Positions 5,521 to 54,802 of a stretch of 64,000 nucleotides of DNA are shown here, in pieces. The position numbers and the translations under genes are program-made. The notes beneath the pieces were generated by a model. It saw only the letters and a program-made list of their open reading frames with translations, was not told the DNA's origin and did not search any database. This stretch comes from Eukaryota sp. GEM-RC1 (taxonomy: Eukaryota): NCBI GenBank assembly GCA_040285855.1, contig JAUFOQ010000010.1:558001-622000 (forward strand). The letters are read 5' to 3'. Position 1 is the stretch's first letter; each line of letters begins with the position of its first letter.

Positions 5521-5537
5521 AGAAACCTTGGTTTCAA

Positions 5538-20682: not shown

Positions 20683-23600
20683 CAAACAAAAGAAATGTGT
20701 GTGATTTGATGTGTTATCTTCTATTACTGCACAGGTTCGGGTTTAGGTTTCTAACCAAACCTTTTTAAACCAAACCAAACCAAAACCTTTTTAATAAAAC
20801 CAAACCAAACCAAAACCTTTAGCTTCAGAACTGAAGGAAAATGAATCACAATTAATTTCAAAAACCCTCTGTCTCTGATATACATCGTATAAGAACGATC
20901 TTGACGTTTTTTCGGTATCTATGCAATTTTTGTTGCGAACAAGTTTTTCTTCTGCTGGACGCACAGTTACAGAAGAATTGTTCAGTGCATGAAAAGCAAC
21001 TTTTCTTTTAAAACCACTTTACCTTGGGTTAAATGGTGTGATACATACTTTTGTCTCATCATCGATTAACTCCCCGCTGTACATACAGGGAGTATGTTGT
21101 CTAGAGCTGCCACTGTGATATAATGCCTTCACCGTATCCAGCTTCAATGGATTGCAGATTTCACTCATCATATGCCACATATTATCATATATATTGAAGT
21201 ATTCTGTTTAATAATTTGTGCTTTTTATTAACAATATTTTTGTTTTTGTCTCAGAAGGAGTGAATCAAAAGACTGTAAACGACCCAGGCTTGGTGAAGAA
21301 GCGATAAGAGAAACATGGGTTTTTGGATAGGATTTAGTAGAGATTTTAAGGTACCTCAAACTTTGCTTCAGACACAGGGGTGATACTGAGACATGATCGT
21401 AGTCACATTGAGGAAGTACATTATAAGTGTTTGGAGAAAGAAGGAGATAGTGACGAGCATCAGACTGTATAAGAAACAACATAGAGTTATTAAAGGAGAT
21501 AGTATTCTTCCAAACAAGATGAGAATTTCGGTAGTGTGACCTCCTGATTCAAGTAACTGAAAGAGAAATCGGCGAAATAGAGAATCCAATTAAGAACAAC
21601 TCAAGTTTCAGATACTCAAAGAGACAAAACACAGAGAACTTGTTCTGAGTTAGTAAGCAGAATTGAATATGTGAGGAGAAGAACCCCTTCAAAGCATTGA
21701 GACGACAATAGCAGCATTAACATTGCCAGAGAAGAGTGTCCTTAAAGAATAGAATCTACAAGAGGGATATGAAAAGATAGGGTAATTTATGCAAGAAGTA
21801 CAGTCACACCTAAAATCGTATTCCCAAGATGACAACGAAAAGAGCTGATGATTGGTGTTGAACAAGGGTAGGCTCATGTCTTAAGTTTACCCTTTGTTTC
21901 TTTTGCTGCCTAAGAAACAATACACTCTGTTATCTGCTCTTTCTGAAAGTCAAAAATAAAAAACCAATGTCCCGGTTAAGCTAGATTGGATGTTTGTGAT
22001 TGTTGCAAAGATAAGGTATCGATCCTGGCTTATATATGGTACTGTAACTGATGGAAGAGGTTGAAAAAGAACTCGAGACGGGAAAAATTGTCGTGCAACA
22101 AAATGATGTCGGAGTTTTCCAGAATGAACTCTTCGATTTGAAGTCTATTTTCTTCCTCAAATGTCTCACTATCTCTGTGATATTTGTCATGAAATTCTCA
22201 AGAATCCGGTAACTACTTGGTGTGGCCACACCTTTTGTATGTCGGATTTGCAGGAGTGGCTTGATTCTCATAACGGATGTCCGATCTGTCGAGCTGAAGT
22301 GGACAAGTCAAGGCTGTGTCCTAACTACAAGTTGAAAGAAGCTGTTGAAGCCTTTGTTGCTGGTCAAGGTGAGACTATTTGTTTTGAGTGTGATGAAGCT
22401 GCTGCCACTTGTTATTGCGCAGAATGTGACGCTGATTTCTGTGACGACTGTTTTAACCCTGCTCATCGCCCCAAGTTGCTACGATCTCACGTTGCTGTCC
22501 CCCTAAATAAGAAGCATGCCTACCTTGTTCCCAAGTGCCCCAGCCACAGTATGAAGTCGTTAGAGTTGTTCTGCACCTTCTGCTCCGTCGCCCTTTGCTC
22601 CACTTGTGCTTTCCTTGGTGACCATGACCAACACAAAAGAAGTTGCTTCCCTTTGACGAAGGTCGAACCTCTGTTGAAAAGAATATCAACTCTATAAACC
22701 AAGAGTTGTCGTTAGCCATTGAAAAATATCTCAGTCAGCTGAAGCTGCTATCCAGCAAGCAACAAGTGGTTTTGTCCAACTCAAAGAAAGTCTGACTGTC
22801 CTGCTCCAAGAAACTATGTTAGACTCTGCTACCATTATGAATGACTTACAATCTGGGAAACCTGTCATGTTCAAGCCAAAGATCAGCGAAAAATTCACTA
22901 CCACAACTTCAACCCTTCTCAACAACCAATCTGATATCATCTCCTCTTTAAATGAAGAACTTTGCTCCATCCACTCCGATGCTTCTCGTCGTTTGACCTC
23001 TCTTTCCGTTGATTCGGAGTCTAGTGTTGCTTCTGCTAGGCTTTTAGATGATACTCCTTTACCAATCAAGTCTATTGACAGTTTATGCCCTGTGCAACAA
23101 GTTGAAGAGAAGAAATTTGTTATTGATTGGAGCAAGCTTAGTTCTAAGTTGAAGAATTGTTATGATCAGATGGTGAGAAATGAGGTTTCTACGATCAATC
23201 TATATAACAACTCAATTGGTCCTGAAGGCGCTATTGCAATTGCTGAAGCTTTGAAGGTGAATTCTTCACTTTCTACGATCAATCTATATAACAACTCAAT
23301 TGGTCCTGAAGGCGCTATTGCAATTGCTGAAGCTTTGAAGGTGAATTCTTCAGTTTCTACGATCAATCTATATAACAACTCAATTGGTCCTGAAGGCGCT
23401 ATTGCAATTGCTGAAGCTTTGAAGGTGAATTCGTCTGTTTCTACGATCAATCTACATAGCAACTCAATTGGTAATGAAGGTGCTATTGCAATTGCTGCAG
23501 CTTTGAAAGTGAATTCGTCTGTTTCTACGATCAATCTACATAGCAACTCAATTGGTAATGAAGGTGCTATTGCAATTGCTGCAGCTTTGAAAGTGAATTC

Positions 23601-24415
23601 GTCTGTTTCTACGATCAATCTACATAGCAACTCAATTGGTAATGAAGGTGCTATTGCAATTGCTGCAGCTTTGAAAGTGAATTCGTCTGTTTCTTCGATT
23701 TATCTACATAGCAACTCAATTAACAGTCAAACACAACAGTCGTTAAAATCACTACACAAGAATAGAATTCATTTCTAAAGATATTTTCCTCTGATATAAA
23801 GATCACCCCATTATAAGTCACACATAAACAAATATCAAAGCAGTTTAGCAGTCGATCATACACAGATTGATTTTCAGTTTTACCCGGTAATTAAGACTCG
23901 TCATATCGAAAAGTTCATTTGCTATTGTTTTCAACAACACCACGTATTAAATGGTATCTGGAAATGATGTAACATTATACTACATGTTTTGAAATGATTC
24001 GAATCACCGACACAGTGTCTCGTTATTAACACGGTTGTATTTTTTCTCAAAAAACAGCTTAATTGTCGTTATGTTGAGTGATGCTTTGATTATTCTTAGT
24101 GATTTATAAGATGTACAGTATCCTTTTGTATCTATTCCAAAGATATTTTAGTCATGGTAATTTATTGAATATTGGTCAAAATTAGGTTATTCGTTAGATT
24201 CTGTTTTAGTGATCTGTAATTTAATTGGAAATCTTGTCACACAATTGTCTTAACATACAAAGTAGGTTTTGTTTATCTTAAATTGAGTTTATTATCTAAC
24301 ATTATCTAAGCTTCTCTTTACGGGATATGGGTTCTATGAACCGGCTAGAATTTCCGATTTCTATCTACATTACAACTCAACTGGTCCTGAAGGCGCTATT
24401 GCAATTGCTGAAGCT
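19829..24415. repeat. Segmental duplication, copy 1 (matches 48353..52940)
   Basis: Near-identical from GAAACTCCAAGTC at 19829 through the RRM gene 5' part, intergenic DNA, the TRIM-like gene and the first spacer. Confidence 0.92.
22161..23778 (+). CDS. TRIM-like E3 ligase: RING, B-box1, B-box2, coiled-coil, 6 LRR modules + cap; frameshift near 22635
   Basis: C3HC4-like RING (CDIC..CGHTFC..CPIC), B-box1 (CFEC..CAECDADFCDDC..H..H), B-box2 (CPSH..CTFC..CSTC..HDQH). One extra A at 22635-22638 joins the frame of ORF 22816..23778. Confidence 0.88.
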
Positions 24416-24607
24416 TTGAAGGTGAAATCGTTTGTTTCTACGGTTGGTCTAGGTAACAACTCAATTGATGATGAAGGCGCTATTGCAATTGCTGAAGCTT
24501 TGAAGGTAAATTCGTCTGTTTCTACGATTTATCTACATAGCAACTCAATTAACAGTCAAACACAACAGTCGTTAAAATCACTACACAAGAATAGAATTCA
24601 TTTCTAA
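24416..24607 (+). pseudogene. Headless LRR cassette A1 (1 module + cap)
   Basis: ORF start is an internal TTG (Leu); no in-frame ATG back to TGA at 24284. Confidence 0.75.
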
Positions 24608-25240
24608 AGATATTTTCCTCTGATATAAAGATCACCCCATTATAAGTCACACATAAACAAATATCAAAGCAGTTTAGCAGTCGATCATACACAGATTGAT
24701 TTTCAGTTTTACCCGGTAATTAAGACTCGTCATATCGAAAAGTTCATTTGCTATTGTTTTCAACAACACCACGTATTAATTGTTATCTGGAAATGATGTA
24801 ACATACTACATGTTTCGAAATATTTCGAATCACCGACACATTGTCTCGTTGTTAACACGGTTGTATTTTTCTCAAAAACAGCTTAATTGTCCATGAGTTG
24901 AGTGATGCTTTGATTATTCTTAGTGATTTATAAGATGTACAGTATCCTTTTGCATCTACTCCAAAGATATTTTAGTCATGGTAATTTATTAAATATTGGT
25001 CAAAATTAGGTTGTTCGTTAGATTCTGTTTTAGTGATCTGTGATTTAATTGGAAATCTTGTCACACAATTGTCCTAACATACAAAGTAGGTTTTTCTTTA
25101 TCTTAAATTGAGTTTATTATCTAACATTATCTAAGCTTCTCCTTACTGGATATGGGTTCTATGAACCGGCTAGCATTTCCGATTTCTATCTACATTACAA
25201 CTCAACTGGTCCTGAAGGCGCTATTGCAATTGCTGAAGCT

Positions 25241-25768
25241 TTGAAGGTGAATTCGTTTGTTTCTTCGATTTATCTATATAACAACTCAATTGGTCCTGAA
25301 GGTGCTATTGCAATTGCTGAATCTTTGAAGGTGAATTCGTCTGTTTCTACGATCGATCTGTATAACAACTCAATTGGTACTGAAGGCGCTATTGCAATTG
25401 CTGAAGCTTTGAAGGTGAATTCTTCAGTTTCTCAGATCGATCTACGTAACAACCCAATTGGTAATGAAGGCGCTATTGCAATTGCTGAAGCTTTGAAGGT
25501 GAATTCTTCAGTTTCTACGATCAATCTATATAACAACTCAATTGGTCCTGAAGGCGCTATTGCAATTGCTGAAGCTTTGAAGGTGAATTCTTCAGTTTCT
25601 ACGATCAATCTATATAACAACTCAATTGGTCCTGAAGGCGCTATTGCAATTGCTGAATCTTTGAAGGTGAATTCGTCTGTTTCTTCGATTTATCTACATA
25701 GCAACTCAATTAACAGTCAAACACAACAGTCGTTAAAATCACTACACAAGAATAGAATTCATTTCTAA
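25241..25768 (+). pseudogene. Headless LRR cassette A2 (5 modules + cap)
   Basis: Open frame, no ATG. Confidence 0.75.
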
Positions 25769-26403
25769 AGATATTTTCCTCTGATATAAAGATCACCCCA
25801 TTATAAGTCACACATAAACAAATATCAAAGCAGTTTAGCAGTCGATCATACACAGATTGATTTTCAGTTTTACCCGGTAATTAAGACTCGTCATATCGAA
25901 AAGTTCATTTGCTATTGTTTTCAACAACACCACGTATTAATTGTTATCTGGAAATGATGTAACATACTACATGTTTCGAAATATTTCGAATCACCGACAC
26001 ATTGTCTCGTTGTTAACACGGTTGTATTTTTTCTCAAAAAACAGCTTAATTGTCCATGAGTTGAGTGATGCTTTGATTATTCTTAGTGATTTATAAGATG
26101 TACAGTATCCTTTTGTATCTACTCCAAAGATATTTTAGTCATGGTAATTTATTAAATATTGGTCAAAATTAGGTTGTTCGTTAGATTCTGTTTTAGTGAT
26201 CTGTGATTTAATTGGAAATCTTGTCACACAATTGTCCTAACATACAAAGTAGGTTTTTCTTTATCTTAAATTGAGTTTATTATCTAACATTATCTAAGCT
26301 TCTCCTTACTGGATATGGGTTCTATGAACCGGCTAGCATTTCCGATTTCTATCTACATTACAACTCAACTGGTCCTGAAGGCGCTATTGCAATTGCTGAA
26401 GCT

Positions 26404-26931
26404 TTGAAGGTGAATTCGTTTGTTTCTTCGATTTATCTATATAACAACTCAATTGGTCCTGAAGGTGCTATTGCAATTGCTGAATCTTTGAAGGTGAATT
26501 CGTCTGTTTCTACGATCGATCTGTATAACAACTCAATTGGTACTGAAGGCGCTATTGCAATTGCTGAAGCTTTGAAGGTGAATTCTTCAGTTTCTCAGAT
26601 CGATCTACGTAACAACCCAATTGGTAATGAAGGCGCTATTGCAATTGCTGAAGCTTTGAAGGTGAATTCTTCAGTTTCTACGATCAATCTATATAACAAC
26701 TCAATTGGTCCTGAAGGCGCTATTGCAATTGCTGAAGCTTTGAAGGTGAATTCGTCTGTTTCTACGATCAATCTAGGTAACAACTCAATTGGTAATGAAG
26801 GCGCTATTGCAATTGCTGAAGCTTTGAAGGTGAATTCGTCTGTTTCTTCGATTTATCTACATAGCAACTCAATTAACAGTCAAACACAACAGTCGTTAAA
26901 ATCACTACACAAGAATAGAATTCATTTCTAA
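26404..26931 (+). pseudogene. Headless LRR cassette A3 (5 modules + cap)
   Basis: Open frame, no ATG; same translation as A6. Confidence 0.75.
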
Positions 26932-27564
26932 AGATATTTTCCTCTGATATAAAGATCACCCCATTATAAGTCACACATAAACAAATATCAAAGCAGTTTA
27001 GCAGTCGATCATACACAGATTGATTTTCAGTTTTACCCGGTAATTAAGACTCGTCATATCGAAAAGTTCATTTGCTATTGTTTTCAACAACACCACGTAT
27101 TAATTGTTATCTGGAAATGATGTAACATACTACATGTTTCGAAATATTTCGAATCACCGACACATTGTCTCGTTGTTAACACGGTTGTATTTTTCTCAAA
27201 AACAGCTTAATTGTCCATGAGTTGAGTGATGCTTTGATTATTCTTAGTGATTTATAAGATGTACAGTATCCTTTTGTATCTACTCCAAAGATATTTTAGT
27301 CATGGTAATTTATTAAATATTGGTCAAAATTAGGTTGTTCGTTAGATTCTGTTTTAGTGATCTGTGATTTAATTGGAAATCTTGTCACACAATTGTCCTA
27401 ACATACAAAGTAGGTTTTTCTTTATCTTAAATTGAGTTTATTATCTAACATTATCTAAGCTTCTCCTTACTGGATATGGGTTCTATGAACCGGCTAGCAT
27501 TTCCGATTTCTATCTACATTACAACTCAACTGGTCCTGAAGGCGCTATTGCAATTGCTGAAGCT

Positions 27565-29352
27565 TTGAAGGTGAATTCGTTTGTTTCTTCGATTTATCTA
27601 TATAACAACTCAATTGGTCCTGAAGGTGCTATTGCAATTGCTGAATCTTTGAAGGTGAATTCGTCTGTTTCTACGATCGATCTGTATAACAACTCAATTG
27701 GTACTGAAGGCGCTATTGCAATTGCTGAAGCTTTGAAGGTGAATTCTTCAGTTTCTCAGATCGATCTACGTAACAACCCAATTGGTAATGAAGGCGCTAT
27801 TGCAATTGCTGAAGCTTTGAAGGTGAATTCTTCAGTTTCTACGATCAATCTATATAACAACTCAATTGGTACTGAAGGCGCTATTGCAATTGCTGAAGCT
27901 TTGAAGGTGAATTCTTCAGTTTCTACGATCAATCTGTATAACAACTCAATTGGTACTGAAGGCGCTATTGCAATTGCTGAAGCTTTGAAGGTGAATTCTT
28001 CAGTTTCTACGATCAATCTGTATAACAACTCAATTGGTACTGAAGGCGCTATTGCAATTGCTGAAGCTTTGAAGGTGAATTCTTCAGTTTCTACGATCGA
28101 TCTAAATTACAACTCAATTGGTCCTGAAGGTGCTATTGCAATTGCTGCAGCTTTGAAGGTGAATTCTTCAGTTTCTACGATCAATCTATATAACAACTCA
28201 ATTGGTACTGAAGGCGCTATTGCAATTGCTGAAGCTTTGAAGGTGAATTCTTCAGTTTCTACGATCGATCTAAATTACAACTCAATTGGTCCTGAAGGTG
28301 CTATTGCAATTGCTGCAGCTTTGAAGGTGAATTCTTCAGTTTCTACGATCAATCTATATAACAACTCAATTGGTACTGAAGGCGCTATTGCAATTGCTGA
28401 AGCTTTGAAGGTGAATTCTTCAGTTTCTACGATCAATCTGTATAACAACTCAATTGGTACTGAAGGCGCTATTGCAATTGCTGAAGCTTTGAAGGTGAAT
28501 TCGTTTGTTTCTACGATTGTTCTAGGTAACAACTCAATTGGTCCTGAAGGTGCTATTGCAATTGCTGCAGCTTTGAAAGTGAATTCGTCTGTTTCTTCGA
28601 TTTATCTACATAGCAACTCAATTGGTCCTGAAGGCGCTATTGCAATTGCTGAAGCTTTGAAGGTGAATTCGTCTGTTTCTACGATCAATCTACATAGCAA
28701 CTCAATTGGTCCTGAAGGCGCTATTGCAATTGCTGAAGCTTTGAAGGTGAATTCGTCTGTTTCTACGATCAATCTACATAGCAACTCAATTGGTAATGAA
28801 GGTGCTATTGCAATTGCTGCAGCTTTGAAAGTGAATTCGTCTGTTTCTTCGATTTATCTACATAGCAACTCAATTGGTACTGAAGGCGCTATTGCAATTG
28901 CTGAAGCTTTGAAGGTGAATTCTTCAGTTTCTACGATCGATCTAAATTACAACTCAATTGGTCCTGAAGGTGCTATTGCAATTGCTGCAGCTTTGAAGGT
29001 GAATTCTTCAGTTTCTACGATCAATCTATATAACAACTCAATTGGTACTGAAGGCGCTATTGCAATTGCTGAAGCTTTGAAGGTGAATTCTTCAGTTTCT
29101 ACGATCAATCTGTATAACAACTCAATTGGTACTGAAGGCGCTATTGCAATTGCTGAAGCTTTGAAGGTGAATTCTTCAGTTTCTACGATCAATCTGTATA
29201 ACAACTCAATTGGTACTGAAGGCGCTATTGCAATTGCTGAAGCTTTGAAGGTGAATTCTTCAGTTTCTTCGATTTATCTACATAGCAACTCAATTAACAG
29301 TCAAACACAACAGTCGTTAAAATCACTACACAAGAATAGAATTCATTTCTAA
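27565..29352 (+). pseudogene. Headless LRR cassette A4 (20 modules + cap)
   Basis: 595-codon open frame, no ATG. Confidence 0.75.
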
Positions 29353-29983
29353 AGATATTTTCCTCTGATATAAAGATCACCCCATTATAAGTCACACATA
29401 AACAAATATCAAAGCAGTTTAGCAGTCGATCATACACAGATTGATTTTCAGTTTTACCCGGTAATTAAGACTCGTCATATCGAAAGTTCATTTGCTATTG
29501 TTTTCAACAACACCACGTATTAATTGTTATCTGGAAATGATGTAACATACTACATGTTTCGAAATATTTCGAATCACCGACACATTGTCTCGTTGTTAAC
29601 ACGGTTGTATTTTTCTCAAAAACAGCTTAATTGTCCATGAGTTGAGTGATGCTTTGATTATTCTTAGTGATTTATAAGATGTACAGTATCCTTTTGTATC
29701 TACTCCAAAGATATTTTAGTCATGGTAATTTATTAAATATTGGTCAAAATTAGGTTGTTCGTTAGATTCTGTTTTAGTGATCTGTGATTTAATTGGAAAT
29801 CTTGTCACACAATTGTCCTAACATACAAAGTAGGTTTTCTTTATCTTAAATTGAGTTTATTATCTAACATTATCTAAGCTTCTCTTTACTGGATATGGGT
29901 TCTATGAACCGGCTAGCATTTCCGATTTCTATCTACATTACAACTCAACTGGTCCTGAAGGCGCTATTGCAATTGCTGAAGCT

Positions 29984-31015
29984 TTGAAGGTGAATTCGTT
30001 TGTTTCTTCGATTTATCTATATAACAACTCAATTGGTCCTGAAGGTGCTATTGCAATTGCTGAATCTTTGAAGGTGAATTCGTCTGTTTCTACGATCGAT
30101 CTAAATTACAACTCAATTGGTCCTGAAGGTGCTATTGCAATTGCTGAAGCTTTGAAGGTGAATTCTTCAGTTTCTCAGATCGATCTACGTAACAACCCAA
30201 TTGGTAATGAAGGCGCTATTGCAATTGCTGAAGCTTTGAAGGTGAATTCTTCAGTTTCTACGATCAATCTATATAACAACTCAATTGGTACTGAAGGCGC
30301 TATTGCAATTGCTGAAGCTTTGAAGGTGAATTCTTCAGTTTCTACGATCAATCTGTATAACAACTCAATTGGTACTGAAGGCGCTATTGCAATTGCTGAA
30401 GCTTTGAAGGTGAATTCTTCAGTTTCTACGATCAATCTGTATAACAACTCAATTGGTACTGAAGGCGCTATTGCAATTGCTGAAGCTTTGAAGGTGAATT
30501 CTTCAGTTTCTACGATCGATCTAAATTACAACTCAATTGGTCCTGAAGGTGCTATTGCAATTGCTGCAGCTTTGAAGGTGAATTCTTCAGTTTCTACGAT
30601 CAATCTATATAACAACTCAATTGGTACTGAAGGCGCTATTGCAATTGCTGAAGCTTTGAAGGTGAATTCTTCAGTTTCTACGATCAATCTGTATAACAAC
30701 TCAATTGGTACTGAAGGCGCTATTGCAATTGCTGAAGCTTTGAAGGTGAATTCTTCAGTTTCTACGATCAATCTGTATAACAACTCAATTGGTACTGAAG
30801 GCGCTATTGCAATTGCTGAAGCTTTGAAGGTGAATTCTTCAGTTTCTACGATCAATCTGTATAACAACTCAATTGGTACTGAAGGCGCTATTGCAATTGC
30901 TGAAGCTTTGAAGGTGAATTCTTCAGTTTCTTCGATTTATCTACATAGCAACTCAATTAACAGTCAAACACAACAGTCGTTAAAATCACTACACAAGAAT
31001 AGAATTCATTTCTAA
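29984..31015 (+). pseudogene. Headless LRR cassette A5 (11 modules + cap)
   Basis: Open frame, no ATG. Confidence 0.75.
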
Positions 31016-31650
31016 AGATATTTTCCTCTGATATAAAGATCACCCCATTATAAGTCACACATAAACAAATATCAAAGCAGTTTAGCAGTCGATCATACAC
31101 AGATTGATTTTCAGTTTTACCCGGTAATTAAGACTCGTCATATCGAAAAGTTCATTTGCTATTGTTTTCAACAACACCACGTATTAATTGTTATCTGGAA
31201 ATGATGTAACATACTACATGTTTCGAAATATTTCGAATCACCGACACATTGTCTCGTTGTTAACACGGTTGTATTTTTTCTCAAAAAACAGCTTAATTGT
31301 CCATGAGTTGAGTGATGCTTTGATTATTCTTAGTGATTTATAAGATGTACAGTATCCTTTTGTATCTACTCCAAAGATATTTTAGTCATGGTAATTTATT
31401 AAATATTGGTCAAAATTAGGTTGTTCGTTAGATTCTGTTTTAGTGATCTGTGATTTAATTGGAAATCTTGTCACACAATTGTCCTAACATACAAAGTAGG
31501 TTTTTCTTTATCTTAAATTGAGTTTATTATCTAACATTATCTAAGCTTCTCCTTACTGGATATGGGTTCTATGAACCGGCTAGCATTTCCGATTTCTATC
31601 TACATTACAACTCAACTGGTCCTGAAGGCGCTATTGCAATTGCTGAAGCT

Positions 31651-32178
31651 TTGAAGGTGAATTCGTTTGTTTCTTCGATTTATCTATATAACAACTCAAT
31701 TGGTCCTGAAGGTGCTATTGCAATTGCTGAATCTTTGAAGGTGAATTCGTCTGTTTCTACGATCGATCTGTATAACAACTCAATTGGTACTGAAGGCGCT
31801 ATTGCAATTGCTGAAGCTTTGAAGGTGAATTCTTCAGTTTCTCAGATCGATCTACGTAACAACCCAATTGGTAATGAAGGCGCTATTGCAATTGCTGAAG
31901 CTTTGAAGGTGAATTCTTCAGTTTCTACGATCAATCTATATAACAACTCAATTGGTCCTGAAGGCGCTATTGCAATTGCTGAAGCTTTGAAGGTGAATTC
32001 GTCTGTTTCTACGATCAATCTAGGTAACAACTCAATTGGTAATGAAGGCGCTATTGCAATTGCTGAAGCTTTGAAGGTGAATTCGTCTGTTTCTTCGATT
32101 TATCTACATAGCAACTCAATTAACAGTCAAACACAACAGTCGTTAAAATCACTACACAAGAATAGAATTCATTTCTAA
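31651..32178 (+). pseudogene. Headless LRR cassette A6 (5 modules + cap)
   Basis: Open frame, no ATG. Confidence 0.75.
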
Positions 32179-32813
32179 AGATATTTTCCTCTGATATAAA
32201 GATCACCCCATTATAAGTCACACATAAACAAATATCAAAGCAGTTTAGCAGTCGATCATACACAGATTGATTTTCAGTTTTACCCGGTAATTAAGACTCG
32301 TCATATCGAAAAGTTCATTTGCTATTGTTTTCAACAACACCACGTATTAATTGTTATCTGGAAATGATGTAACATACTACATGTTTCGAAATATTTCGAA
32401 TCACCGACACATTGTCTCGTTGTTAACACGGTTGTATTTTTTCTCAAAAAACAGCTTAATTGTCCATGAGTTGAGTGATGCTTTGATTATTCTTAGTGAT
32501 TTATAAGATGTACAGTATCCTTTTGTATCTACTCCAAAGATATTTTAGTCATGGTAATTTATTAAATATTGGTCAAAATTAGGTTGTTCGTTAGATTCTG
32601 TTTTAGTGATCTGTGATTTAATTGGAAATCTTGTCACACAATTGTCCTAACATACAAAGTAGGTTTTTCTTTATCTTAAATTGAGTTTATTATCTAACAT
32701 TATCTAAGCTTCTCCTTACTGGATATGGGTTCTATGAACCGGCTAGCATTTCCGATTTCTATCTACATTACAACTCAACTGGTCCTGAAGGCGCTATTGC
32801 AATTGCTGAAGCT

Positions 32814-33341
32814 TTGAAGGTGAATTCGTTTGTTTCTTCGATTTATCTATATAACAACTCAATTGGTCCTGAAGGTGCTATTGCAATTGCTGAATCTTTG
32901 AAGGTGAATTCGTCTGTTTCTACGATCGATCTGTATAACAACTCAATTGGTACTGAAGGCGCTATTGCAATTGCTGAAGCTTTGAAGGTGAATTCTTCAG
33001 TTTCTCAGATCGATCTACGTAACAACCCAATTGGTAATGAAGGCGCTATTGCAATTGCTGAAGCTTTGAAGGTGAATTCTTCAGTTTCTACGATCAATCT
33101 ATATAACAACTCAATTGGTACTGAAGGCGCTATTGCAATTGCTGAAGCTTTGAAGGTGAATTCTTCAGTTTCTACGATCAATCTGTATAACAACTCAATT
33201 GGTACTGAAGGCGCTATTGCAATTGCTGAAGCTTTGAAGGTGAATTCTTCAGTTTCTTCGATTTATCTACATAGCAACTCAATTAACAGTCAAACACAAC
33301 AGTCGTTAAAATCACTACACAAGAATAGAATTCATTTCTAA
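32814..33341 (+). pseudogene. Headless LRR cassette A7 (5 modules + cap)
   Basis: Open frame, no ATG. Confidence 0.75.
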
Positions 33342-33976
33342 AGATATTTTCCTCTGATATAAAGATCACCCCATTATAAGTCACACATAAACAAATATCA
33401 AAGCAGTTTAGCAGTCGATCATACACAGATTGATTTTCAGTTTTACCCGGTAATTAAGACTCGTCATATCGAAAAGTTCATTTGCTATTGTTTTCAACAA
33501 CACCACGTATTAATTGTTATCTGGAAATGATGTAACATACTACATGTTTCGAAATATTTCGAATCACCGACACATTGTCTCGTTGTTAACACGGTTGTAT
33601 TTTTTCTCAAAAAACAGCTTAATTGTCCATGAGTTGAGTGATGCTTTGATTATTCTTAGTGATTTATAAGATGTACAGTATCCTTTTGTATCTACTCCAA
33701 AGATATTTTAGTCATGGTAATTTATTAAATATTGGTCAAAATTAGGTTGTTCGTTAGATTCTGTTTTAGTGATCTGTGATTTAATTGGAAATCTTGTCAC
33801 ACAATTGTCCTAACATACAAAGTAGGTTTTTCTTTATCTTAAATTGAGTTTATTATCTAACATTATCTAAGCTTCTCTTTACTGGATATGGGTTCTATGA
33901 ACCGGCTAGCATTTCCAATTTCTATCTACATTACAACTCAACTGGTCCTGAAGGCGCTATTGCAATTGCTGAAGCT

Positions 33977-34336
33977 TTGAAGGTGAATTCGTTTGTTTCT
34001 TCGATTTATCTATATAACAACTCAATTGGTCCTGAAGGTGCTATTGCAATTGCTGAATCTTTGAAGGTGAATTCGTCTGTTTCTACGATCGATCTAAATT
34101 ACAACTCAATTGGTCCTGAAGGTGCTATTGCAATTGCTGAAGCTTTGAAGGTGAATTCTTCAGTTTCTCAGATCGATCTACGTAACAACCCAATTGGTAA
34201 TGAAGGCGCTATTGCAATTGCTGAAGCTTTGAAGGTGAATTCTTCAGTTTCTTCGATTTATCTACATAGCAACTCAATTAACAGTCAAACACAACAGTCG
34301 TTAAAATCACTACACAAGAATAGAATTCATTTCTAA
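33977..34336 (+). pseudogene. Headless LRR cassette A8 (3 modules + cap)
   Basis: Open frame, no ATG; same translation as A9. Confidence 0.75.
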
Positions 34337-34975
34337 AGATATTTTCCTCTGATATAAAGATCACCCCATTATAAGTCACACATAAACAAATATCAAAGCA
34401 GTTTAGCAGTCGATCATACACAGATTGATTTTCAGTTTTACCCGGTAATTAAGACTCGTCATATCGAAAAGTTCATTTGCTATTGTTTTCAACAACACCA
34501 CGTATTAATTGTTATCTGGAAATGATGTAACATTATACTACATGTTTCGAAATATTTCGAATCACCGACACATTGTCTCGTTGTTAACACGGTTGTATTT
34601 TTTCTCAAAAAACAGCTTAATTGTCCATGAGTTGAGTGATGCTTTGATTATTCTTAGTGATTTATAAGATGTACAGTATCCTTTTGTATCTACTCCAAAG
34701 ATATTTTAGTCATGGTAATTTATTAAATATTGGTCAAAATTAGGTTGTTCGTTAGATTCTGTTTTAGTGATCTGTGATTTAATTGGAAATCTTGTCACAC
34801 AATTGTCCTAACATACAAAGTAGGTTTTTTCTTTATCTTAAATTGAGTTTATTATCTAACATTATCTAAGCTTCTCTTTACTGGATATGGGTTCTATGAA
34901 CCGGCTAGCATTTCCGATTTCTATCTACATTACAACTCAACTGGTCCTGAAGGCGCTATTGCAATTGCTGAAGCT

Positions 34976-35335
34976 TTGAAGGTGAATTCGTTTGTTTCTT
35001 CGATTTATCTATATAACAACTCAATTGGTCCTGAAGGTGCTATTGCAATTGCTGAATCTTTGAAGGTGAATTCGTCTGTTTCTACGATCGATCTAAATTA
35101 CAACTCAATTGGTCCTGAAGGTGCTATTGCAATTGCTGAAGCTTTGAAGGTGAATTCTTCAGTTTCTCAGATCGATCTACGTAACAACCCAATTGGTAAT
35201 GAAGGCGCTATTGCAATTGCTGAAGCTTTGAAGGTGAATTCTTCAGTTTCTTCGATTTATCTACATAGCAACTCAATTAACAGTCAAACACAACAGTCGT
35301 TAAAATCACTACACAAGAATAGAATTCATTTCTAA
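34976..35335 (+). pseudogene. Headless LRR cassette A9 (3 modules + cap)
   Basis: Open frame, no ATG. Confidence 0.75.
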
Positions 35336-35972
35336 AGATATTTTCCTCTGATATAAAGATCACCCCATTATAAGTCACACATAAACAAATATCAAAGCAG
35401 TTTAGCAGTCGATCATACACAGATTGATTTTCAGTTTTACCCGGTAATTAAGACTCGTCATATCGAAAAGTTCATTTGCTATTGTTTTCAACAACACCAC
35501 GTATTAATTGGTATCTGGAAATGAAGTAACATTATTCTTTTGTTTTGAAATGATTCGAATCACCGACACAATGTCTCGTTATTAACACGGTTGTATTTTT
35601 TCTCAAAAAACAGCTTAATTGTCGTTATGTTGAGTGATGCTTTGATTATTCTTAGTGATTTATAAGATGTACAGTATCCTTTTGTATCTACTCCAAAGAT
35701 ATTTTAGTCATGGTAATTTATTAAATATTGGTCAAAATTAGGTTGTTCGTTAGATTCTGTTTTAGTGATCTGTGATTTAATTGGAAATCTTGTCACACAA
35801 TTGTCCTAACATACAAAGTAGGTTTTTGTTTATCTTAAATTGAGTTTATTATCTAACATTATCTAAGCTTCTCTTTACTGGATATGGGTTCTATGAACCG
35901 GCTAGCATTTCCGATTTCTATCTACATTACAACTCAACTGGTCCTGAAGGCGCTATTGCAATTGCTGAAGCT

Positions 35973-37170
35973 TTGAAGGTGAATTCGTGTGTTTCTACGA
36001 TTGTTCTAGGTAACAACTCAATTGGTCCTGAAGGCGCTATTGCAATTGCTGAAGCTTTGAAGGTGAATTCGTCTGTTTCTTCGATTTATCTATATAACAA
36101 CTCAATTGGTCCTGAAGGTGCTATTGCAATTGCTGAAGCTTTGAAGGTGAATTCGTCTGTTTCTACGATCGATCTATTTAGCAACTCAATTGGTAATGAA
36201 GGCGCTATTGCAATTGCTGAAGCTTTGAAGGTGAATTCGTCTGTTTCTTCGATTTATCTATATAACAACTCAATTGGTAATGAAGGTGCTATTGCAATTG
36301 CTGCAGCTTTGAAAGTGAATTCGTCTGTTTCTTCGATTTATCTACATAGCAACTCAATTGGTCCTGAAGGCGCTATTGCAATTGCTGAAGCTTTGAAGGT
36401 GAATTCGTCTGTTTCTTCGAATATCTATATAACAACTCAATTGGTAATGAAGGTGCTATTGCAATTGCTGCAGCTTTGAAAGTGAATTCGTCTGTTTCTT
36501 CGATTTATCTACATAGCAACTCAATTGGTCCTGAAGGCGCTATTGCAATTGCTGAAGCTTTGAAGGTGAATTCGTCTGTTTCTTCGAATATCTATATAAC
36601 AACTCAATTGGTAATGAAGGTGCTATTGCAATTGCTGCAGCTTTGAAAGTGAATTCGTCTGTTTCTTCGATTTATCTACATAGCAACTCAATTGGTCCTG
36701 AAGGCGCTATTGCAATTGCTGAAGCTTTGAAGGTGAATTCTTCAGTTTCTACGATCAATCTACATAGCAACTCAATTGGTCCTGAAGGTGCTATTGCAAT
36801 TGCTGAAGCTTTGAAGGTGAATTCTTCAGTTTCTACGATCAATCTACATAGCAACTCAATTGGTAATGAAGGCGCTATTGCAATTGCTGAAGCTTTGAAA
36901 GTGAATTCGTCTGTTTCTTCGATTTATCTACATAGCAACTCAATTGGTCCTGAAGGTGCTATTGCAATTGCTGAAGCTTTGAAGGTGAATTCGTCTGTTT
37001 CTTCGATTTATCTATATAACAACTCAATTGGTAATGAAGGTGCTATTGCAATTGCTGCAGCTTTGAAAGTGAATTCGTCTGTTTCTTCGATTTATCTACA
37101 TAGCAACTCAATTAACAGTCAAACACAACAGTCGTTAAAATCACTACACAAGAATAGAATTCATTTCTAA
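35973..37170 (+). pseudogene. Headless LRR cassette A10 (13 modules + cap) with two 1-nt deletions
   Basis: TCGAATATCTA instead of TCGATTTATCTA at ~36421 and ~36588. Confidence 0.8.
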
Positions 37171-37806
37171 AGATATTTTCCTCTGATATAAAGATCACCC
37201 CATTATAAGTCACACATAAACAAATATCAAAGCAGTTTAGCAGTCGATCATACACAGATTGATTTTCAGTTTTACCCGGTAATTAAGACTCGTCATATCG
37301 AAAGTTCATTTGCTATTGTTTTCAACAACACCACGTATTAATTGGTATCTGGAAATGAAGTAACATTATTCTTTTGTTTTGAAATGATTCGAATCACCGA
37401 CACAATGTCTCGTTATTAACACGGTTGTATTTTTTCTCAAAAAACAGCTTAATTGTCGTTATGTTGAGTGATGCTTTGATTATTCTTAGTGATTTATAAG
37501 ATGTACAGTATCCTTTTGTATCTACTCCAAAGATATTTTAGTCATGGTAATTTATTAAATATTGGTCAAAATTAGGTTGTTCGTTAGATTCTGTTTTAGT
37601 GATCTGTGATTTAATTGGAAATCTTGTCACACAATTGTCCTAACATACAAAGTAGGTTTTTGTTTATCTTAAATTGAGTTTATTATCTAACATTATCTAA
37701 GCTTCTCTTTACTGGATATGGGTTCTATGAACCGGCTAGCATTTCCGATTTCTATCTACATTACAACTCAACTGGTCCTGAAGGCGCTATTGCAATTGCT
37801 GAAGCT

Positions 37807-38670
37807 TTGAAGGTGAATTCGTTTGTTTCTACGATTGTTCTAGGTAACAACTCAATTGGTCCTGAAGGCGCTATTGCAATTGCTGAAGCTTTGAAGGTGA
37901 ATTCGTCTGTTTCTTCGATTTATCTATATAACAACTCAATTGGTCCTGAAGGTGCTATTGCAATTGCTGAAGCTTTGAAGGTGAATTCGTCTGTTTCTAC
38001 GATCGATCTATTTAGCAACTCAATTGGTAATGAAGGCGCTATTGCAATTGCTGAAGCTTTGAAGGTGAATTCGTCTGTTTCTTCGATTTATCTATATAAC
38101 AACTCAATTGGTAATGAAGGTGCTATTGCAATTGCTGCAGCTTTGAAAGTGAATTCGTCTGTTTCTTCGATTTATCTACATAGCAACTCAATTGGTCCTG
38201 AAGGCGCTATTGCAATTGCTGAAGCTTTGAAGGTGAATTCTTCAGTTTCTACGATCAATCTACATAGCAACTCAATTGGTCCTGAAGGTGCTATTGCAAT
38301 TGCTGAAGCTTTGAAAGTGAATTCGTCTGTTTCTTCGATTTATCTACATAGCAACTCAATTGGTCCTGAAGGTGCTATTGCAATTGCTGAAGCTTTGAAG
38401 GTGAATTCGTCTGTTTCTTCGATTTATCTACATAGCAACTCAATTGGTCCTGAAGGTGCTATTGCAATTGCTGAAGCTTTGAAGGTGAATTCGTCTGTTT
38501 CTTCGATTTATCTATATAACAACTCAATTGGTAATGAAGGTGCTATTGCAATTGCTGCAGCTTTAAAAGTGAATTCGTCTGTTTCTTCGATTTATCTACA
38601 TAGCAACTCAATTAACAGTCAAACGCAACAGTCGTTAAAATCACTACACAAGAATAGAATTCATTTCTAA
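37807..38670 (+). pseudogene. Headless LRR cassette A11 (9 modules + cap)
   Basis: Open frame, no ATG. Confidence 0.75.
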
Positions 38671-39307
38671 AGATATTTTCCTCTGATATAAAGATCACCC
38701 CATTATAAGTCACACATAAACAAATATCAAAGCAGTTTAGCAGTCGATCATACACAGATTGATTTTCAGTTTTACCCGGTAATTAAGACTCGTCATATCG
38801 AAAAGTTCATTTGCTATTGTTTTCAACAACACCACGTATTAATTGGTATCTGGAAATGAAGTAACATTATTCTTTTGTTTTGAAATGATTCGAATCACCG
38901 ACACAATGTCTCGTTATTAACACGGTTGTATTTTTTCTCAAAAAACAGCTTAATTGTCGTTATGTTGAGTGATGCTTTGATTATTCTTAGTGATTTATAA
39001 GATGTACAGTATCCTTTTGTATCTACTCCAAAGATATTTTAGTCATGGAAATTTATTAAATATTGGTCAAAATTAGGTTGTTCGTTAGATTCTGTTTTAG
39101 TGATCTGTGATTTAATTGGAAATCTTGTCACACAATTGTCCTAACATACAAAGTAGGTTTTTGTTTATCTTAAATTGAGTTTATTATCTAACATTATCTA
39201 AGCTTCTCTTTACTGGATATGGGTTCTATGAACCGGCTAGCATTTCCGATTTCTATCTACATTACAACTCAACTGGTCCTGAAGGCGCTATTGCAATTGC
39301 TGAAGCT

Positions 39308-40087
39308 TTGAAGGTGAATTCGTTTGTTTCTACGATTGTTCTAGGTAACAACTCAATTGGTCCTGAAGGCGCTATTGCAATTGCTGAAGCTTTGAAGGTG
39401 AATTCGTCTGTTTCTTCGATTTATCTATATAACAACTCAATTGGTCCTGAAGGTGCTATTGCAATTGCTGAAGCTTTGAAGGTGAATTCGTCTGTTTCTA
39501 CGATCGATCTATTTAGCAACTCAATTGGTAATGAAGGCGCTATTGCAATTGCTGAAGCTTTGAAAGTGAATTCGTCTGTTTCTTCGATTTATCTATATAA
39601 CAACTCAATTGGTAATGAAGGCGCTATTGCAATTGCTGAAGCTTTGAAAGTGAATTCTTCAGTTTCTACGATCAATCTACATAGCAACTCAATTGGTCCT
39701 GAAGGTGCTATTGCAATTGCTGAAGCTTTGAAGGTGAATTCTTCAGTTTCTACGATCAATCTACATAGCAACTCAATTGGTAATGAAGGCGCTATTGCAA
39801 TTGCTGAAGCTTTGAAAGTGAATTCGTCTGTTTCTTCGATTTATCTATATAACAACTCAATTGGTAATGAAGGCGCTATTGCAATTGCTGAAGCTTTGAA
39901 GGTGAATTCTTCAGTTTCTCAGATCGATCTACGTAACAACCCAATTGGTAATGAAGGCGCTATTGCAATTGCTGAAGCTTTGAAGGTGAATTCTTCAGTT
40001 TCTTCGATTTATCTACATAGCAACTCAATTAACAGTCAAACACAACAGTCGTTAAAATCACTACACAAGAATAGAATTCATTTCTAA
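39308..40087 (+). pseudogene. Headless LRR cassette A12 (8 modules + cap)
   Basis: Open frame, no ATG. Confidence 0.75.
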
Positions 40088-40724
40088 AGATATTTTCCTC
40101 AGATATAAAGATCACCCCATTATAAGTCACACATGAACAAATATCAAAGCAGTTTAGCAGTCGATCATACACAGATTGATTTTCAGTTTTACCCGGTAAT
40201 TAAGACTCGTCATATCGAAAAGTTCATTTGCTATTGTTTTCAACAACACCACGTATTAATTGTTATCTGGAAATGATGTAACATTATACTACATGTTTCG
40301 AAATATTTCGAATCACCGACACATTGTCTCGTTGTTAACACGGTTGTATTTTTTCTCAAAAAACAGCTTAATTGTCCATGAGTTGAGTGATGCTTTGATT
40401 ATTCTTAGTGATTTATAAGATGTACAGTATCCTTTTGTATCTACTCCAAAGATATTTTAGTCATGGTAATTTATTAAATATTGGTCAAAATTAGGTTGTT
40501 CGTTAGATTCTGTTTTAGTGATCTGTGATTTAATTGGAAATCTTGTCACACAATTGTCCTAACATACAAAGTAGGTTTTGTTTATCTTAAATTGAGTTTA
40601 TTATCTAACATTATCTAAGCTTCTCTTTACTGGATATGGGTTCTATGAACCGGCTAGCATTTCCGATTTCTATCTACATTACAACTCAACTGGTCCTGAA
40701 GGTGCTATTGCAATTGCTGAAGCT

Positions 40725-41924
40725 TTGAAGGTGAATTCTTCAGTTTCTACGATCAATCTACATAGCAACTCAATTGGTAATGAAGGCGCTATTGCAATTG
40801 CTGAAGCTTTGAAAGTGAATTCGTCTGTTTCTTCGATTTATCTACATAGCAACTCAATTGGTCCTGAAGGTGCTATTGCAATTGCTGAAGCTTTGAAGGT
40901 GAATTCTTCAGTTTCTACGATCAATCTACATAGCAACTCAATTGGTAATGAAGGCGCTATTGCAATTGCTGAAGCTTTGAAAGTGAATTCGTCTGTTTCT
41001 TCGATTTATCTATATAACAACTCAATTGGTAATGAAGGCGCTATTGCAATTGCTGCAGCTTTGAAGGTGAATTCTTCAGTTTCTACGATCAATCTATATA
41101 ACAACTCAATTGGTACTGAAGGCGCTATTGCAATTGCTGAAGCTTTGAAGGTGAATTCTTCAGTTTCTACGATCAATCTGTATAACAACTCAATTGGTAC
41201 TGAAGGCGCTATTGCAATTGCTGAAGCTTTGAAGGTGAATTCTTCAGTTTCTACGATCAATCTACATAGCAACTCAATTGGTAATGAAGGCGCTATTGCA
41301 ATTGCTGAAGCTTTGAAAGTGAATTCGTCTGTTTCTTCGATTTATCTATATAACAACTCAATTGGTAATGAAGGCGCTATTGCAATTGCTGCAGCTTTGA
41401 AGGTGAATTCTTCAGTTTCTACGATCAATCTATATAACAACTCAATTGGTAATGAAGGCGCTATTGCAATTGCTGCAGCTTTGAAGGTGAATTCTTCAGT
41501 TTCTACGATCAATCTATATAACAACTCAATTGGTAATGAAGGCGCTATTGCAATTGCTGCAGCTTTGAAGGTGAATTCTTCAGTTTCTACGATCAATCTA
41601 TATAACAACTCAATTGGTAATGAAGGCGCTATTGCAATTGCTGAAGCTTTGAAGCTGAATTCTTCAGTTTCTACGATCAATCTGTATATCAACTCAATTG
41701 GTAATGAAGGCGCTATTGCAATTGCTGAAGCTTTGAAGGTGAATTCTTCAGTTTCTCAGATCGATCTACGTAACAACCCAATTGGTAATGAAGGCGCTAT
41801 TGCAATTGCTGAAGCTTTGAAGGTGAATTCTTCAGTTTCTAAGATTTATCTAGATAACAACTCAATTAACAGTCAAACACAACAGTCGTTAAAATCACTA
41901 CACAAGAATAGAATTCGTTTCTAA
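40725..41924 (+). pseudogene. Headless LRR cassette A13 (13 modules + divergent cap)
   Basis: Open frame, no ATG; unique cap SKIYLDNN...NRIRF. Confidence 0.75.
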
Positions 41925-42540
41925 AGATATTTTCCTCTGATATAAAGATCACCCCATTATAAGTCACACATGAACAAATATCAATGCGGTTTAGCAGTTG
42001 ATCATACACAGATTGATTTTCAGTTTTACCCGGTAATTAAGACTCCTCATATCGAAAAGTTCATTTGCTATTGTTTTCAACATCACCACGTATTAATTGG
42101 TATCTGGAAATGATGTAACATTATACTACATGTTTCGAAATATTTCGAATCACCGACACATTGTCTCGTTGTTAACACGGTTGTATTTTTTCTCAAAAAA
42201 CAGCTTAATTGTCCTTGAGTTGAGTGATACTTTGATTATTCTCAGTGATCTATAAGATGTACAGTATCCTTTTGTATGTGTTCCATAGATATTTTAGTCA
42301 TGGTAATTTATTGAATATTGGTCAAAATTTGGTTATTCGTTAGATTCTATTTTAGTGATCTGTAATTTTATTGGAAATCTTGTCGCACAATTGTCTTAAC
42401 ATACAAAGTAGGTCTTTGCTTATCTTAAATTGAGTGTGTTATCTAACGTTATCTAAGCTTCTTTTTAATAGATTTGTGTTCTATAAACCGGCTAGAATTT
42501 CTGACTTCTATCTACATAACAACTCAATTGGTACTGAAGG

Positions 42541-42796
42541 CTTCCGTTGCACTGGATGCGACGTCAACAATTTTGGCAGTAAAGAGTGCTTGCAATGGAA
42601 GTTCGTATCCTTCATGGTTTGGACGGGGTGTGGATTCCAACGGTTTTTCAGTAATTCTTGAACTGCAGGGAGGTCGAGAAGTACCACGCCGTCGGATAGA
42701 AGTTGTTGTTTTAGTACTTCTTTCCATTAACAAAGTCAAATGATTGATTGTATAGTATTGATGGCAAATGACACAAGTTATTTCATGTTGCGTCAC
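42541..42796 (-). pseudogene. Truncated 5' fragment of an RRM-type gene
   Basis: PRPNHEGYELPLQALFTAKIV matches IRPGHEQYELPSEAPFTAEIV of the RRM-LRR genes; breaks at 42541. Confidence 0.65.
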
Positions 42797-54442: not shown

Positions 54443-54802
54443 TTGAAGGTGAATTCGTCTGTTTTTTCGATCAATCTAGGTAACAACTCAATTGGTAATG
54501 AAGGCGCTATTGCAATTGCTGAAGCTTTGAAGGTGAATTCGTCTGTTTCTACGATCTATCTAGGTAACAACTCAATTGGTCCTGAAGGCGCTATTGCAAT
54601 TGCTGAAGCTTTGAAGGTGAATTCGTCTGTTTCTACGATCAATCTAGGTAACAACTCAATTGGTAATGAAGGCGCTATTGCAATTGCTGAAGCTTTGAAG
54701 GTGAATTCGTCTGTTTCTTCGATTTATCTACATAGCAACTCAATTAACAGTCAAACACAACAGTCGTTAAAATCACTACACAAGAATAGAATTCATTTCT
54801 AA
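54443..54802 (+). pseudogene. Headless LRR cassette B2 (3 modules + cap)
   Basis: Open frame, no ATG. Confidence 0.75.

Follow-up and report, generated by a model that had tools for sequence, protein, structure and literature searches.

It is still largely an open question how single-celled eukaryotes recognise parasites that change rapidly, and a locus of Eukaryota sp. GEM-RC1 (contig JAUFOQ010000010.1, positions 558,001 to 622,000, forward strand; this stretch of 64,000 nucleotides is referred to as the window) bears on it. The locus contains a long series of near-identical leucine-rich repeat (LRR) modules, which raises two questions: whether selection has shaped the variation among the modules, and whether the many module copies could serve an expressed gene.

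Organization of the locus

The window holds 186 modules of 84 bp in 25 blocks. The 41-nt motif quoted in the preliminary description matches 165 times over the whole window, always on the + strand, and 107 of these matches lie in 23185–41924, a region with 120 anchored modules. The modules are real, but rather than a single array, this region of locus A comprises the 3' end of a gene encoding a TRIM-like protein (RING, two B-boxes, predicted coiled coil, LRR) and 13 separate tandem cassettes (Table 1). Each cassette consists, in order, of a spacer of ~570 bp, 2–21 in-register LRR modules, a cap and a stop codon. The RING/B-box head gene and the lack of start codons in the cassettes were not mentioned in the preliminary description. 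Internal cassettes open with a degenerate first module (ISDFYLHYNST type), followed by LRR modules, the cap and TAA, and in the cassette at 35907 a 1-bp shift is present in duplicate (36410, 36577). A duplicate locus, B, begins at 50768 and occupies 50768–64000 in the window.

Table 1. Features of loci A and B, numbered from the first letter of the window.
Feature	Positions	Strand	Remarks
Head gene A	22161..23778	+	RING, two B-boxes, predicted coiled coil, linker, 6 LRR modules, cap
Candidate phase-0 splice donor ATG/GTGAGA	23170..23178	+	Bar between ATG and GTGAGA; head A, 15 nt upstream of first module
LRR end of head A	23185..23778	+	6 modules of 84 bp, capping module, stop
First spacer	23779..24349	+	~570 bp
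Candidate branch point and acceptor CTAAC..TAAG	24296..24310	+	Phase 0 with cassette frame, 24/24 spacers
Head-proximal cassette	24350..24607	+	Decayed; framework changes I4V, G12D, N26K
11 internal cassettes	25175..40087	+	4–21 modules each
Last cassette of locus A	40659..41924	+	14 modules, different cap (SKIYLDNN...KNRIRF)
Terminal spacer	41925..42543	+	6–8% diverged from internal spacers
Head gene B	50768..52302	+	Duplicate of A, different set of 5 LRR modules
Cassette array B	52875..64000	+	9 complete cassettes and one cut at window end

The 23 internal spacer copies in the window differ by 0–4.2% and carry block-wise haplotypes, and the terminal spacer of locus A finishes in a truncated LRR module, the edge of the array. 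No Rfam match and no notable hairpin was found in the spacer. The last 63 nt of the first spacer are open in the LRR frame following a TGA; homology of the spacer end to the linker preceding the LRR in the head was considered and rejected, as the similarity did not rise above that of shuffles (p 0.9 and 0.4). Eighteen of the 22 complete cassettes are distinct, and since some cassettes are identical, their copy number is uncertain.

The LRR module and its variable residues

The 28-residue repeat (LxxLxLxxNxL plus a helix), its 84-bp period and its match to Pfam LRR_6 identify the module as a ribonuclease-inhibitor-like LRR. The structure model of the LRR (pLDDT 95) has strands at module positions 3–7 and a helix at 12–25, and superimposes on the NOD2 LRR fold with a TM of 0.93 and an rmsd of 1.8. 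The modules are contiguous at 84 bp and are not encoded as one exon per repeat. Position counts confirm the variable residues as they had been written earlier (S[T/S/Q/K]I[N/D/Y/V]L... plus G[P/N/T]): in locus A, position 3 is T, S or Q (K only in the last cap), position 5 is N, Y, D or V, position 7 is Y, H, R, G, N or F (D in the last cap and in locus B), position 8 is N, S or Y, position 10 is S or P, and position 13 is P, N or T. Position 13 had been counted among the binding-strand sites; it is variable, but it sits at the helix start and by itself does not reach significance (p about 0.2). The named paralogues, which are partly in one 90% cluster with the window proteins and do not represent an independent species, vary at the same positions, with 49 other module types and 13 residues at position 7.

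The framework, described as almost fixed even at most synonymous sites, is near-fixed insofar as 57 of the 84 nucleotide positions have only one allele seen twice or more, but it is not fixed at synonymous sites, where 7 alleles are found on 18.4 sites, against 35 alleles on 574 columns of the spacer. The framework DNA therefore varies more than the spacer, and the suggestion that it is held constant to supply homology for recombination is not supported. In the x codons, third positions are nearly invariant, and all variant codons are NNT at positions 5, 7 and 13 and NNC at position 8.

Selection on predicted strand residues

The site counts rest on 158 of the 186 modules. Of the remainder, 22 are degenerate modules that open a cassette, 4 adjoin two 1-bp shifts, one is the first module at 33911 and one the decayed module at 24434. 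The six x positions of LxxLxLxxNxL carry 19 amino-acid-changing alleles on 13.2 sites, and the whole module has 8 synonymous alleles on 24 sites; in this allele count, which is independent of any tree, the ratio is 4.3 at the x sites (p 2e-4) and 0.4 in the framework. Transition weights of 1–4 leave the x-site ratio at 3.8–4.9 (p 8e-4 to 7e-5), and in 1142–1419 neutral simulations that had 8 synonymous alleles, the amino-acid-changing alleles, 4–5 on average, never numbered as many as 19. Counted as steps in locus A, the x codons have 14 non-synonymous and 0 synonymous changes and the framework 2 and 6 (Fisher p 4e-4). An enrichment of x over framework changes is by itself ordinary, since four older LRR genes in the window, taken as a control, show the same (x pN 0.41–0.62 versus framework 0.16–0.25), with x pN near pS (0.34–0.64, near saturation); the information lies solely in the excess relative to synonymous change. 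This excess, together with the model that places positions 3–7 on strands, supports diversifying selection on the predicted strand residues of the modules. The preliminary description had staked this proposal on two points, and both came out in its favour: strand positions are enriched in changes, and their dN/dS is higher than that of the framework.

The head genes

In Pfam scans, which covered the B copy of the head, RING families score above the cut-off at 4–49 and zf-B_box is found in two stretches, and a RING with one or two B-boxes after it at the N-terminus is the arrangement that defines TRIM/RBCC proteins. As to the predicted coiled coil, which in TRIM/RBCC proteins directly follows the B-box, the paralogue P0002 has long helices at 163–219 and 244–281, modelled with a pLDDT of only about 60–69, and the full-length model is not reliable in its N-terminal half (pLDDT below 50 at 1–72 and 101–169). 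The Pfam scans gave no NACHT or NB-ARC domain. Based on its RING, the head product is predicted to be a ubiquitin ligase, which would choose its targets via the LRR end.

In head A the frame shifts by −1 at two A runs, near 22635 and 22722, and in head B at one, near 51240; these shifts are likely assembly errors, and five named full-length paralogues (P0001, P0002, P0014, P0018, P0024) are in frame. Nevertheless, the window heads may be pseudogenes, since both are frameshifted in the assembly and the paralogues P0016 and P0017 terminate where the window heads shift frame. The two heads are 97.7% identical over 2.3 kb, yet their LRR ends differ; outside the LRR, their pN/pS is 0.18 (11/758 against 21/256). 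An LRR end, a cap and a stop are part of each head, and the germline gene is thus complete.

Recombination and sharing of modules

Four gametes were found for 55 of 84 site pairs 7–20 nt apart and for 17 of 46 pairs at 6 nt or less, which supports recombination within modules. Free combinatorial shuffling of module types, as previously suggested, is not supported, for the order is kept in blocks: the 87 adjacent module pairs include 37 distinct ones, as compared with a mean of 67 and a minimum of 57 in 2000 shuffles. The residue combinations observed number 26 of 2100 possible, and a TALE-like modular recognition code likewise finds no support.

Modules are common to each head and its own cassettes. 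Exact nucleotide copies of five of the six head A modules are present in A cassettes and of none in B cassettes, the three HSNS modules of head A being copied exactly only in A. The two SRIDL modules of head B have exact copies only in B cassettes, three each, and the nearest A module is 11 and 6 nt off, respectively. This sharing gives no direction, as copying from head to cassette alone suffices to explain it. As a count only, the 636 module pairs of locus A could yield 457 distinct module strings through one crossover.

What the cassettes may be

We hypothesize that the cassettes are silent 3' duplicates, generated by unequal crossing-over, which exchange modules with a TRIM-like gene under selection at its strand residues; we give this reading an even chance of being right. 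An LRR module lying astray where the spacer 3' of the head ends would have recombined with head modules, duplicating a unit of modules, cap and spacer, and repeated unequal exchange would then have enlarged and homogenised the array. Subsequently, a single crossover or conversion that pairs a head module in register with one from a cassette could provide the head with a new, in-frame LRR end, so that selection would work on modules while they are in the head and the array would store them. Judging from the architecture alone, the targets could be fast-changing foreign proteins, for instance of a virus, an intracellular bacterium or a mobile element, which would be marked for degradation. Silence is favoured by the absence of any in-frame Met in the cassettes, by the duplicated frameshift, by the decayed edge cassette and by changes private to one cassette, which look neutral (11 non-synonymous and 3 synonymous; 6 to 3 in the framework, a ratio of 1.1), although this test is weak (established versus private framework changes, Fisher p 0.4) and the private changes may be consensus errors. 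The paralogues P0018, P0007, P0011 and P0012 include 3' partial copies with other start points.

Against silence, in 21 of the 22 complete cassettes the frame stays open from the candidate phase-0 acceptor to the cap. Though we consider it unlikely, expression of the cassettes could take two forms: they might be spliced to the head as alternative last exons (ATG/GTGAGA to CTAAC..TAAG), or be small LRR-only genes with an ATG before a spacer intron of ~155 nt. The candidate donor, found in head B at 51778 as well, and the acceptor are both in phase 0 and flank the LRR boundary; an ATG/GT-ATT donor lies 154–156 nt upstream of the acceptor in 23 of 24 spacers; such motifs are sparse on both strands of 32 kb of non-array DNA (9 donors, 37 acceptors); and four named gene models of 143 aa (five accessions) start with the translated end of the spacer. 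However, the splice motifs were chosen after looking, and they do not fit the fused branch point/3' splice site consensus reported for diplomonads in the available part of PMC6679479, which may not be that of this lineage. In addition, an LRR end and a stop are already present in the head; the candidate donor coincides with the conserved codons M-V-R; every cassette begins with a degenerate module (I4F, I11T); the changes private to one cassette look neutral; the 3' copies of paralogues start elsewhere; and the proteins of 143 aa are products of gene prediction. The lead peptide was sought among proteins of 285–2000 aa and, in this weak search, found in 0 of 83 candidates.

It is also improbable, in our estimation, that the cassettes are a by-product, produced when tandem duplication of a gene end ran away in a genome rich in repeats; nothing useful would then return to the heads, and the selection signal would be a fossil copied outward from expressed heads. 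The genomes of the named relatives are 28–55% repetitive according to Table 1 of PMC11316075, the portion of that report drawn on here. Spacers are young (0–4% apart) whereas modules differ by 10% at synonymous sites, which indicates that the alleles predate expansion of the array, and the block-wise order, identical cassettes, neutral-looking private changes and possibly broken heads all agree with this reading. On the other hand, array A holds far more module types (27) than the present head A (3 protein types), the layout is old enough for its terminal spacer to have diverged, and in-register homology permits exchange both ways.

Diversity-generating retroelements mutagenise all adenines of a template specifically. 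A targeted, adenine-directed mutator of this type, in place of selection, would give NNT and NNC codons such as those seen here, as expected from AAY mutagenesis, but it is very improbable: four of five third-position adenines are invariant in 158/158 modules, the changes at positions 2 and 10 are not at adenines, and no reverse transcriptase was found among 10 scanned window ORFs. An assembly artefact as the source of the array or of its variation is scarcely credible, for although frameshifts at homopolymers in several genes suggest that the assembly is error-prone and some cassettes are identical, errors would ignore codon and strand position, spacer haplotypes are block-wise and the module sets of A and B are distinct.

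Comparison with known systems

Lamprey VLR cassettes, Borrelia vlsE and trypanosome VSG genes are surface or secreted systems with regulated conversion, in which silent partial copies beside an expressed gene feed it by homology. In VLR-type assembly, the germline gene is incomplete until cassettes are supplied, and conversion is enzyme-driven within a lineage. In contrast, the gene described here is of a predicted intracellular ligase type and complete in the germline, and its feeding by silent homologous copies is our proposal.

The repeat evolution parallels that of fungal HET-type WD40 genes. The Podospora het-d/het-e (HNWD) genes, in the available text of PMC1805685, likewise have near-identical repeats that evolve in concert within and between loci, with few interaction-surface codons under positive selection, as well as variable repeat numbers and pseudogenes that retain intact repeats; near-identical repeats with few positively selected surface codons are also what is found here. 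However, these are WD40 repeats on a NACHT protein in a fungus, not LRRs on a RING–B-box protein with a predicted coiled coil, and that text does not describe a start-less 3' cassette array behind the genes. In Ectocarpus, recent ROCO duplicates are near-identical except for LRR ends under diversifying selection, and non-coding LRR copies have been proposed as a reservoir; as far as described in the excerpts of PMC3341825, each repeat is a 72-nt exon, spare exons lie within introns and the effector is a GTPase, whereas here the 84-nt modules are contiguous and the spares lie 3' of the stop. The 90-bp-exon LRR genes of Tetrahymena are similarly young, clonally expanded protist modules reshuffled via unequal crossing-over, but according to the sections available of PMC6564038 they have one exon per repeat, phase-2 introns and an associated retrotransposon. 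TRIM/RBCC ligases have the order RING, B-box, B-box, coiled coil and C-terminal domain, which the head would match with its predicted coiled coil, but LRRs are absent among the C-terminal domains described in the consulted part of PMC2533329, which does not describe a cassette array either. LRSAM1 combines LRR and RING as a pattern-recognition ligase, with the domain order reversed and no B-box, and a cassette array is not described in the accessible portion of PMC8567218.

The literature searched did not reveal any protist TRIM-like ligase with such a layout of head and cassettes. Metagenome scans gave 57 pattern matches, none confirmed, and no hit to the module motif or in viral contigs, and a search of 1.84 billion representatives returned only generic ribonuclease-inhibitor-like LRR proteins (58,552 at E 0.001). 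Atlas leads comprise B-box/RING clusters at 0.92 and 0.91, the first mostly from ciliates where known, and B-box plus LRR clusters at 0.86.

Implications

The homogenisation of the repeats lowers synonymous noise and so exposes selection, making this a clean example even if the array is a by-product. With its 28 residues and five or six positions open to tuning, the repeat frame is reminiscent of designed repeat binders. The locus joins a clear signature of diversifying selection on a predicted LRR binding face to a predicted ubiquitin ligase, in a layout that could renew this face in one step. The nearest named relatives are from a cultured flagellate, and switching, expression and targets are hence directly testable. 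A more far-reaching proposal, which we regard as unlikely, is that a single-celled metamonad possesses a cassette-fed, anticipatory form of recognition, in which each TRIM-like ligase locus, with its library of selected LRR ends, would switch its binding surface at a high rate, either through in-register recombination or through choice among many last exons, so that a clonal population would display hundreds of specificities against viruses or intracellular bacteria. If true, such a protist would have coupled a strategy like that of VLRs to ubiquitin.

Organization of the locus

The window DNA is eukaryotic, with ~35% G+C and many LRR genes, and the TRIM-like gene that starts at 22161, head A, is followed by 13 cassettes, start-less partial 3' copies of its LRR end. 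Each cassette consists of a spacer of ~570 bp, then a first module that is degenerate and 1–20 more modules, closed by a cap and TAA, and none has an in-frame Met. The terminal spacer 3' of the last A cassette is 6–8% diverged from the other spacers and closes with a truncated module. The RING and B-box domain calls were made on the duplicate copy of the gene. In both heads the reading frame slips by -1 in a run of As 3' of the second B-box, and in head A it does so a second time; these shifts are likely assembly errors, because five named paralogues are full-length and in frame and other window genes are also broken up near homopolymers. Two further paralogues stop at the same place as the heads. 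Outside the LRR, heads A and B are alike (pS 0.082, pN 0.015), yet their LRR ends are different module strings. Their synonymous sites differ by 8%, versus 0.9% in the upstream non-coding DNA, a contrast suggesting that the head coding DNA was converted from other paralogues.

Features of the window and their coordinates
Feature	Position	Remarks
Head A	from 22161, stop at 23778	RING, two B-boxes, long helical region, six 84-bp LRR modules, cap
Head B	50768	duplicate of head A; own array of at least 10 cassettes
Segmental duplication	19829-23180 vs 48353-51790	97.7-99.7% match
Upstream non-coding DNA of duplicate	20881-22160 vs 49482-50767	12/1279 different
Higher-order duplication, array B	52875-60054	cassettes 52875 = 56373 identical; 54377 = 57875 = 61541 identical
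Terminal spacer	42274-42411	donor-like GTATGT; internal spacers GTATCT there
Degenerate hAT DNA transposon	44840-46011	inverted repeats at the termini and a perfect 8-bp target duplication; broken ORF encodes a hAT dimerisation domain
Second family, older LRR genes	1739-3118, 5520-6956, 7826-9949, 18681-20742, 43603-44683, 48339-49265	N-terminal part uncharacterised; copy at 48339 truncated by segmental duplication
YhhN and DUF1295 family genes	313-816 (-) and 15349-16150 (+)	may be bacterial-type
749-codon open frame	11770-14019	no Pfam match; resembles a strongly diverged LRR protein

Variation by module position

Alleles were counted in 158 of the 186 window modules (four beside frameshifts, 22 degenerate first modules and those at 33911 and 24434 were dropped) as the fewest steps that link, at each position, the codons occurring two or more times, a count that needs no tree and is therefore not inflated by recombination. 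The x positions 2, 3, 5, 7, 8 and 10, the variable sites of LxxLxLxxNxL, show 19 non-synonymous steps on 13.2 sites against eight synonymous steps on 24.0 sites of the whole module, a ratio of 4.3 (p = 2e-4; 3.8–4.9 under other transition weights, 3.7 with singletons included). The remaining framework has six non-synonymous steps on 44.6 sites (ratio 0.40), so that the ratio is higher at x than in the framework, the comparison proposed beforehand as a check. Locus A alone gives 14 non-synonymous x steps against six synonymous (p = 0.002), and neutral simulations conditioned on eight synonymous alleles gave 4–5 non-synonymous x alleles, never reaching 19. Positions 7, 5, 8, 13 and 3 vary most, and the same positions are variable in 15 named paralogues, which supply 49 further module types. 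In four older LRR genes of the window, x positions are again the more variable ones, with pN close to a pS near saturation; therefore only the excess over synonymous change is informative. Diversifying selection on the LRR strands is real and statistically supported.

The preliminary description, whose motif has 107 matches among the 120 modules in 23185-41924, was right to concentrate variation at strand positions. In the cassette structure model (pLDDT 95), which matches the NOD2 LRR (TM 0.93), positions 3–7 form strands and 12–25 a helix. Strands of this kind form the concave binding face of LRRs, and by this geometry the variable strand positions would lie on that face. Position 13 (G[P/N/T]), also listed there among the changing sites, is off the strand and not significant alone. 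Nor does the framework stand out as conserved DNA: 18.4 of its sites carry seven synonymous alleles, and 574 spacer columns carry 35. Four-gamete counts show recombination inside modules, but a framework held constant to serve as recombination homology was not supported.

Module order and proposed exchange with the heads

Free combinatorial shuffling was not borne out: of the 87 neighbour pairs in locus A, 37 are distinct (shuffling gives a mean of 67 and never fewer than 57), and of the 44 in locus B, 20 are (shuffled mean 32); five positions could form 2100 combinations, of which 26 are present. The block-wise order is what duplication, deletion and patchy conversion produce, not a free code. 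Of the six head A modules, five recur exactly in A cassettes, and none does so in B cassettes; of the five in head B, four recur exactly in B cassettes, three of these nowhere else, and the first head B module matches an A cassette. All modules share one frame and orientation, and therefore one crossover links the head to any cassette's end; in locus A, 636 module pairs allow 457 distinct strings, counted as possibilities rather than events.

Among the changes private to one cassette (11 non-synonymous, three synonymous), some break the framework and one is a frameshift that was duplicated; private changes arise at a rate close to that of the spacer (14 in ~17 kb vs 14 in ~13 kb), and the weak test of private against established alleles gives p = 0.4. 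Named paralogues include 3' partial copies with other start points (P0018, P0007, P0011, P0012), the P0018 model repeating linker-plus-LRR units. Given the module sharing, in-register frame, neutral-looking private changes and paralogue 3' copies, the most likely reading, to which we give an even chance, is that the cassettes are silent duplicates that arose by unequal crossing-over and exchange modules with the head. Unequal crossing-over would create tandem silent copies of the LRR end, and a single in-register crossover would give the head a cassette's end. Named 143-aa models start with a translated spacer end, and their locus tags are 12–70 numbers away from that of a head-type or LRR gene; with the other 3' partial copies, this suggests that the head-plus-cassette layout recurs. 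These models appear to use an intron matching the terminal-spacer GTATGT site and to be missing the four codons holding the in-frame TGA of the window spacer.

Expression of the cassettes by splicing to the head is an unlikely alternative, for which a candidate phase-0 donor lies 15 nt 5' of the head's first module and a candidate phase-0 branch point/acceptor in 24 of 24 spacers, leaving 21 of 22 complete cassettes open if so spliced; however, the motifs were picked post hoc and are unlike the fused consensus, which is for diplomonads (PMC6679479, available text). It is equally improbable that the cassettes are a by-product and the selection signal a fossil, although module alleles are older than the spacers and module sharing gives no direction of exchange. 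An adenine mutator or an artefact is very hard to credit.

Relatives and known systems

The nearest named proteins carry the label Eukaryota sp. GEM-RC1 (53–90% identity over the linker region), and since a 90% cluster holds some of them together with proteins of the window, they are taken as paralogues, not as an independent species. One paralogue, P0006, has the same RING–B-box–helical part but ends in an unrelated C-terminal region instead of the LRR, which hints at C-terminal swapping. VLR, vlsE, VSG and DGR features serve as comparison systems. GEM-RC has been described as an isolate of Skoliomonas, a bacterivorous metamonad with an anaerobic way of life (PMC11603281, in excerpt). Judged from partial texts, the modules match Podospora HNWD genes in repeat-level evolution (PMC1805685) and resemble Ectocarpus ROCO (PMC3341825) and Tetrahymena LRR genes (PMC6564038), but the locus, lacking the NACHT of the first and the exon per repeat of the others, belongs to none of these classes. 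The literature searched, from which most subscription papers were missing, yielded no description of this locus type, and 'LRR' is absent from the available main text of the publication describing the genomes of those named relatives (PMC11316075) and its preprint.

By analogy of domain order with TRIMs and LRSAM1, a ligase role with foreign targets may be predicted; that the locus is a switching recognition system is doubtful. A TRIM-like head with spare LRR ends downstream is notable in a protist.
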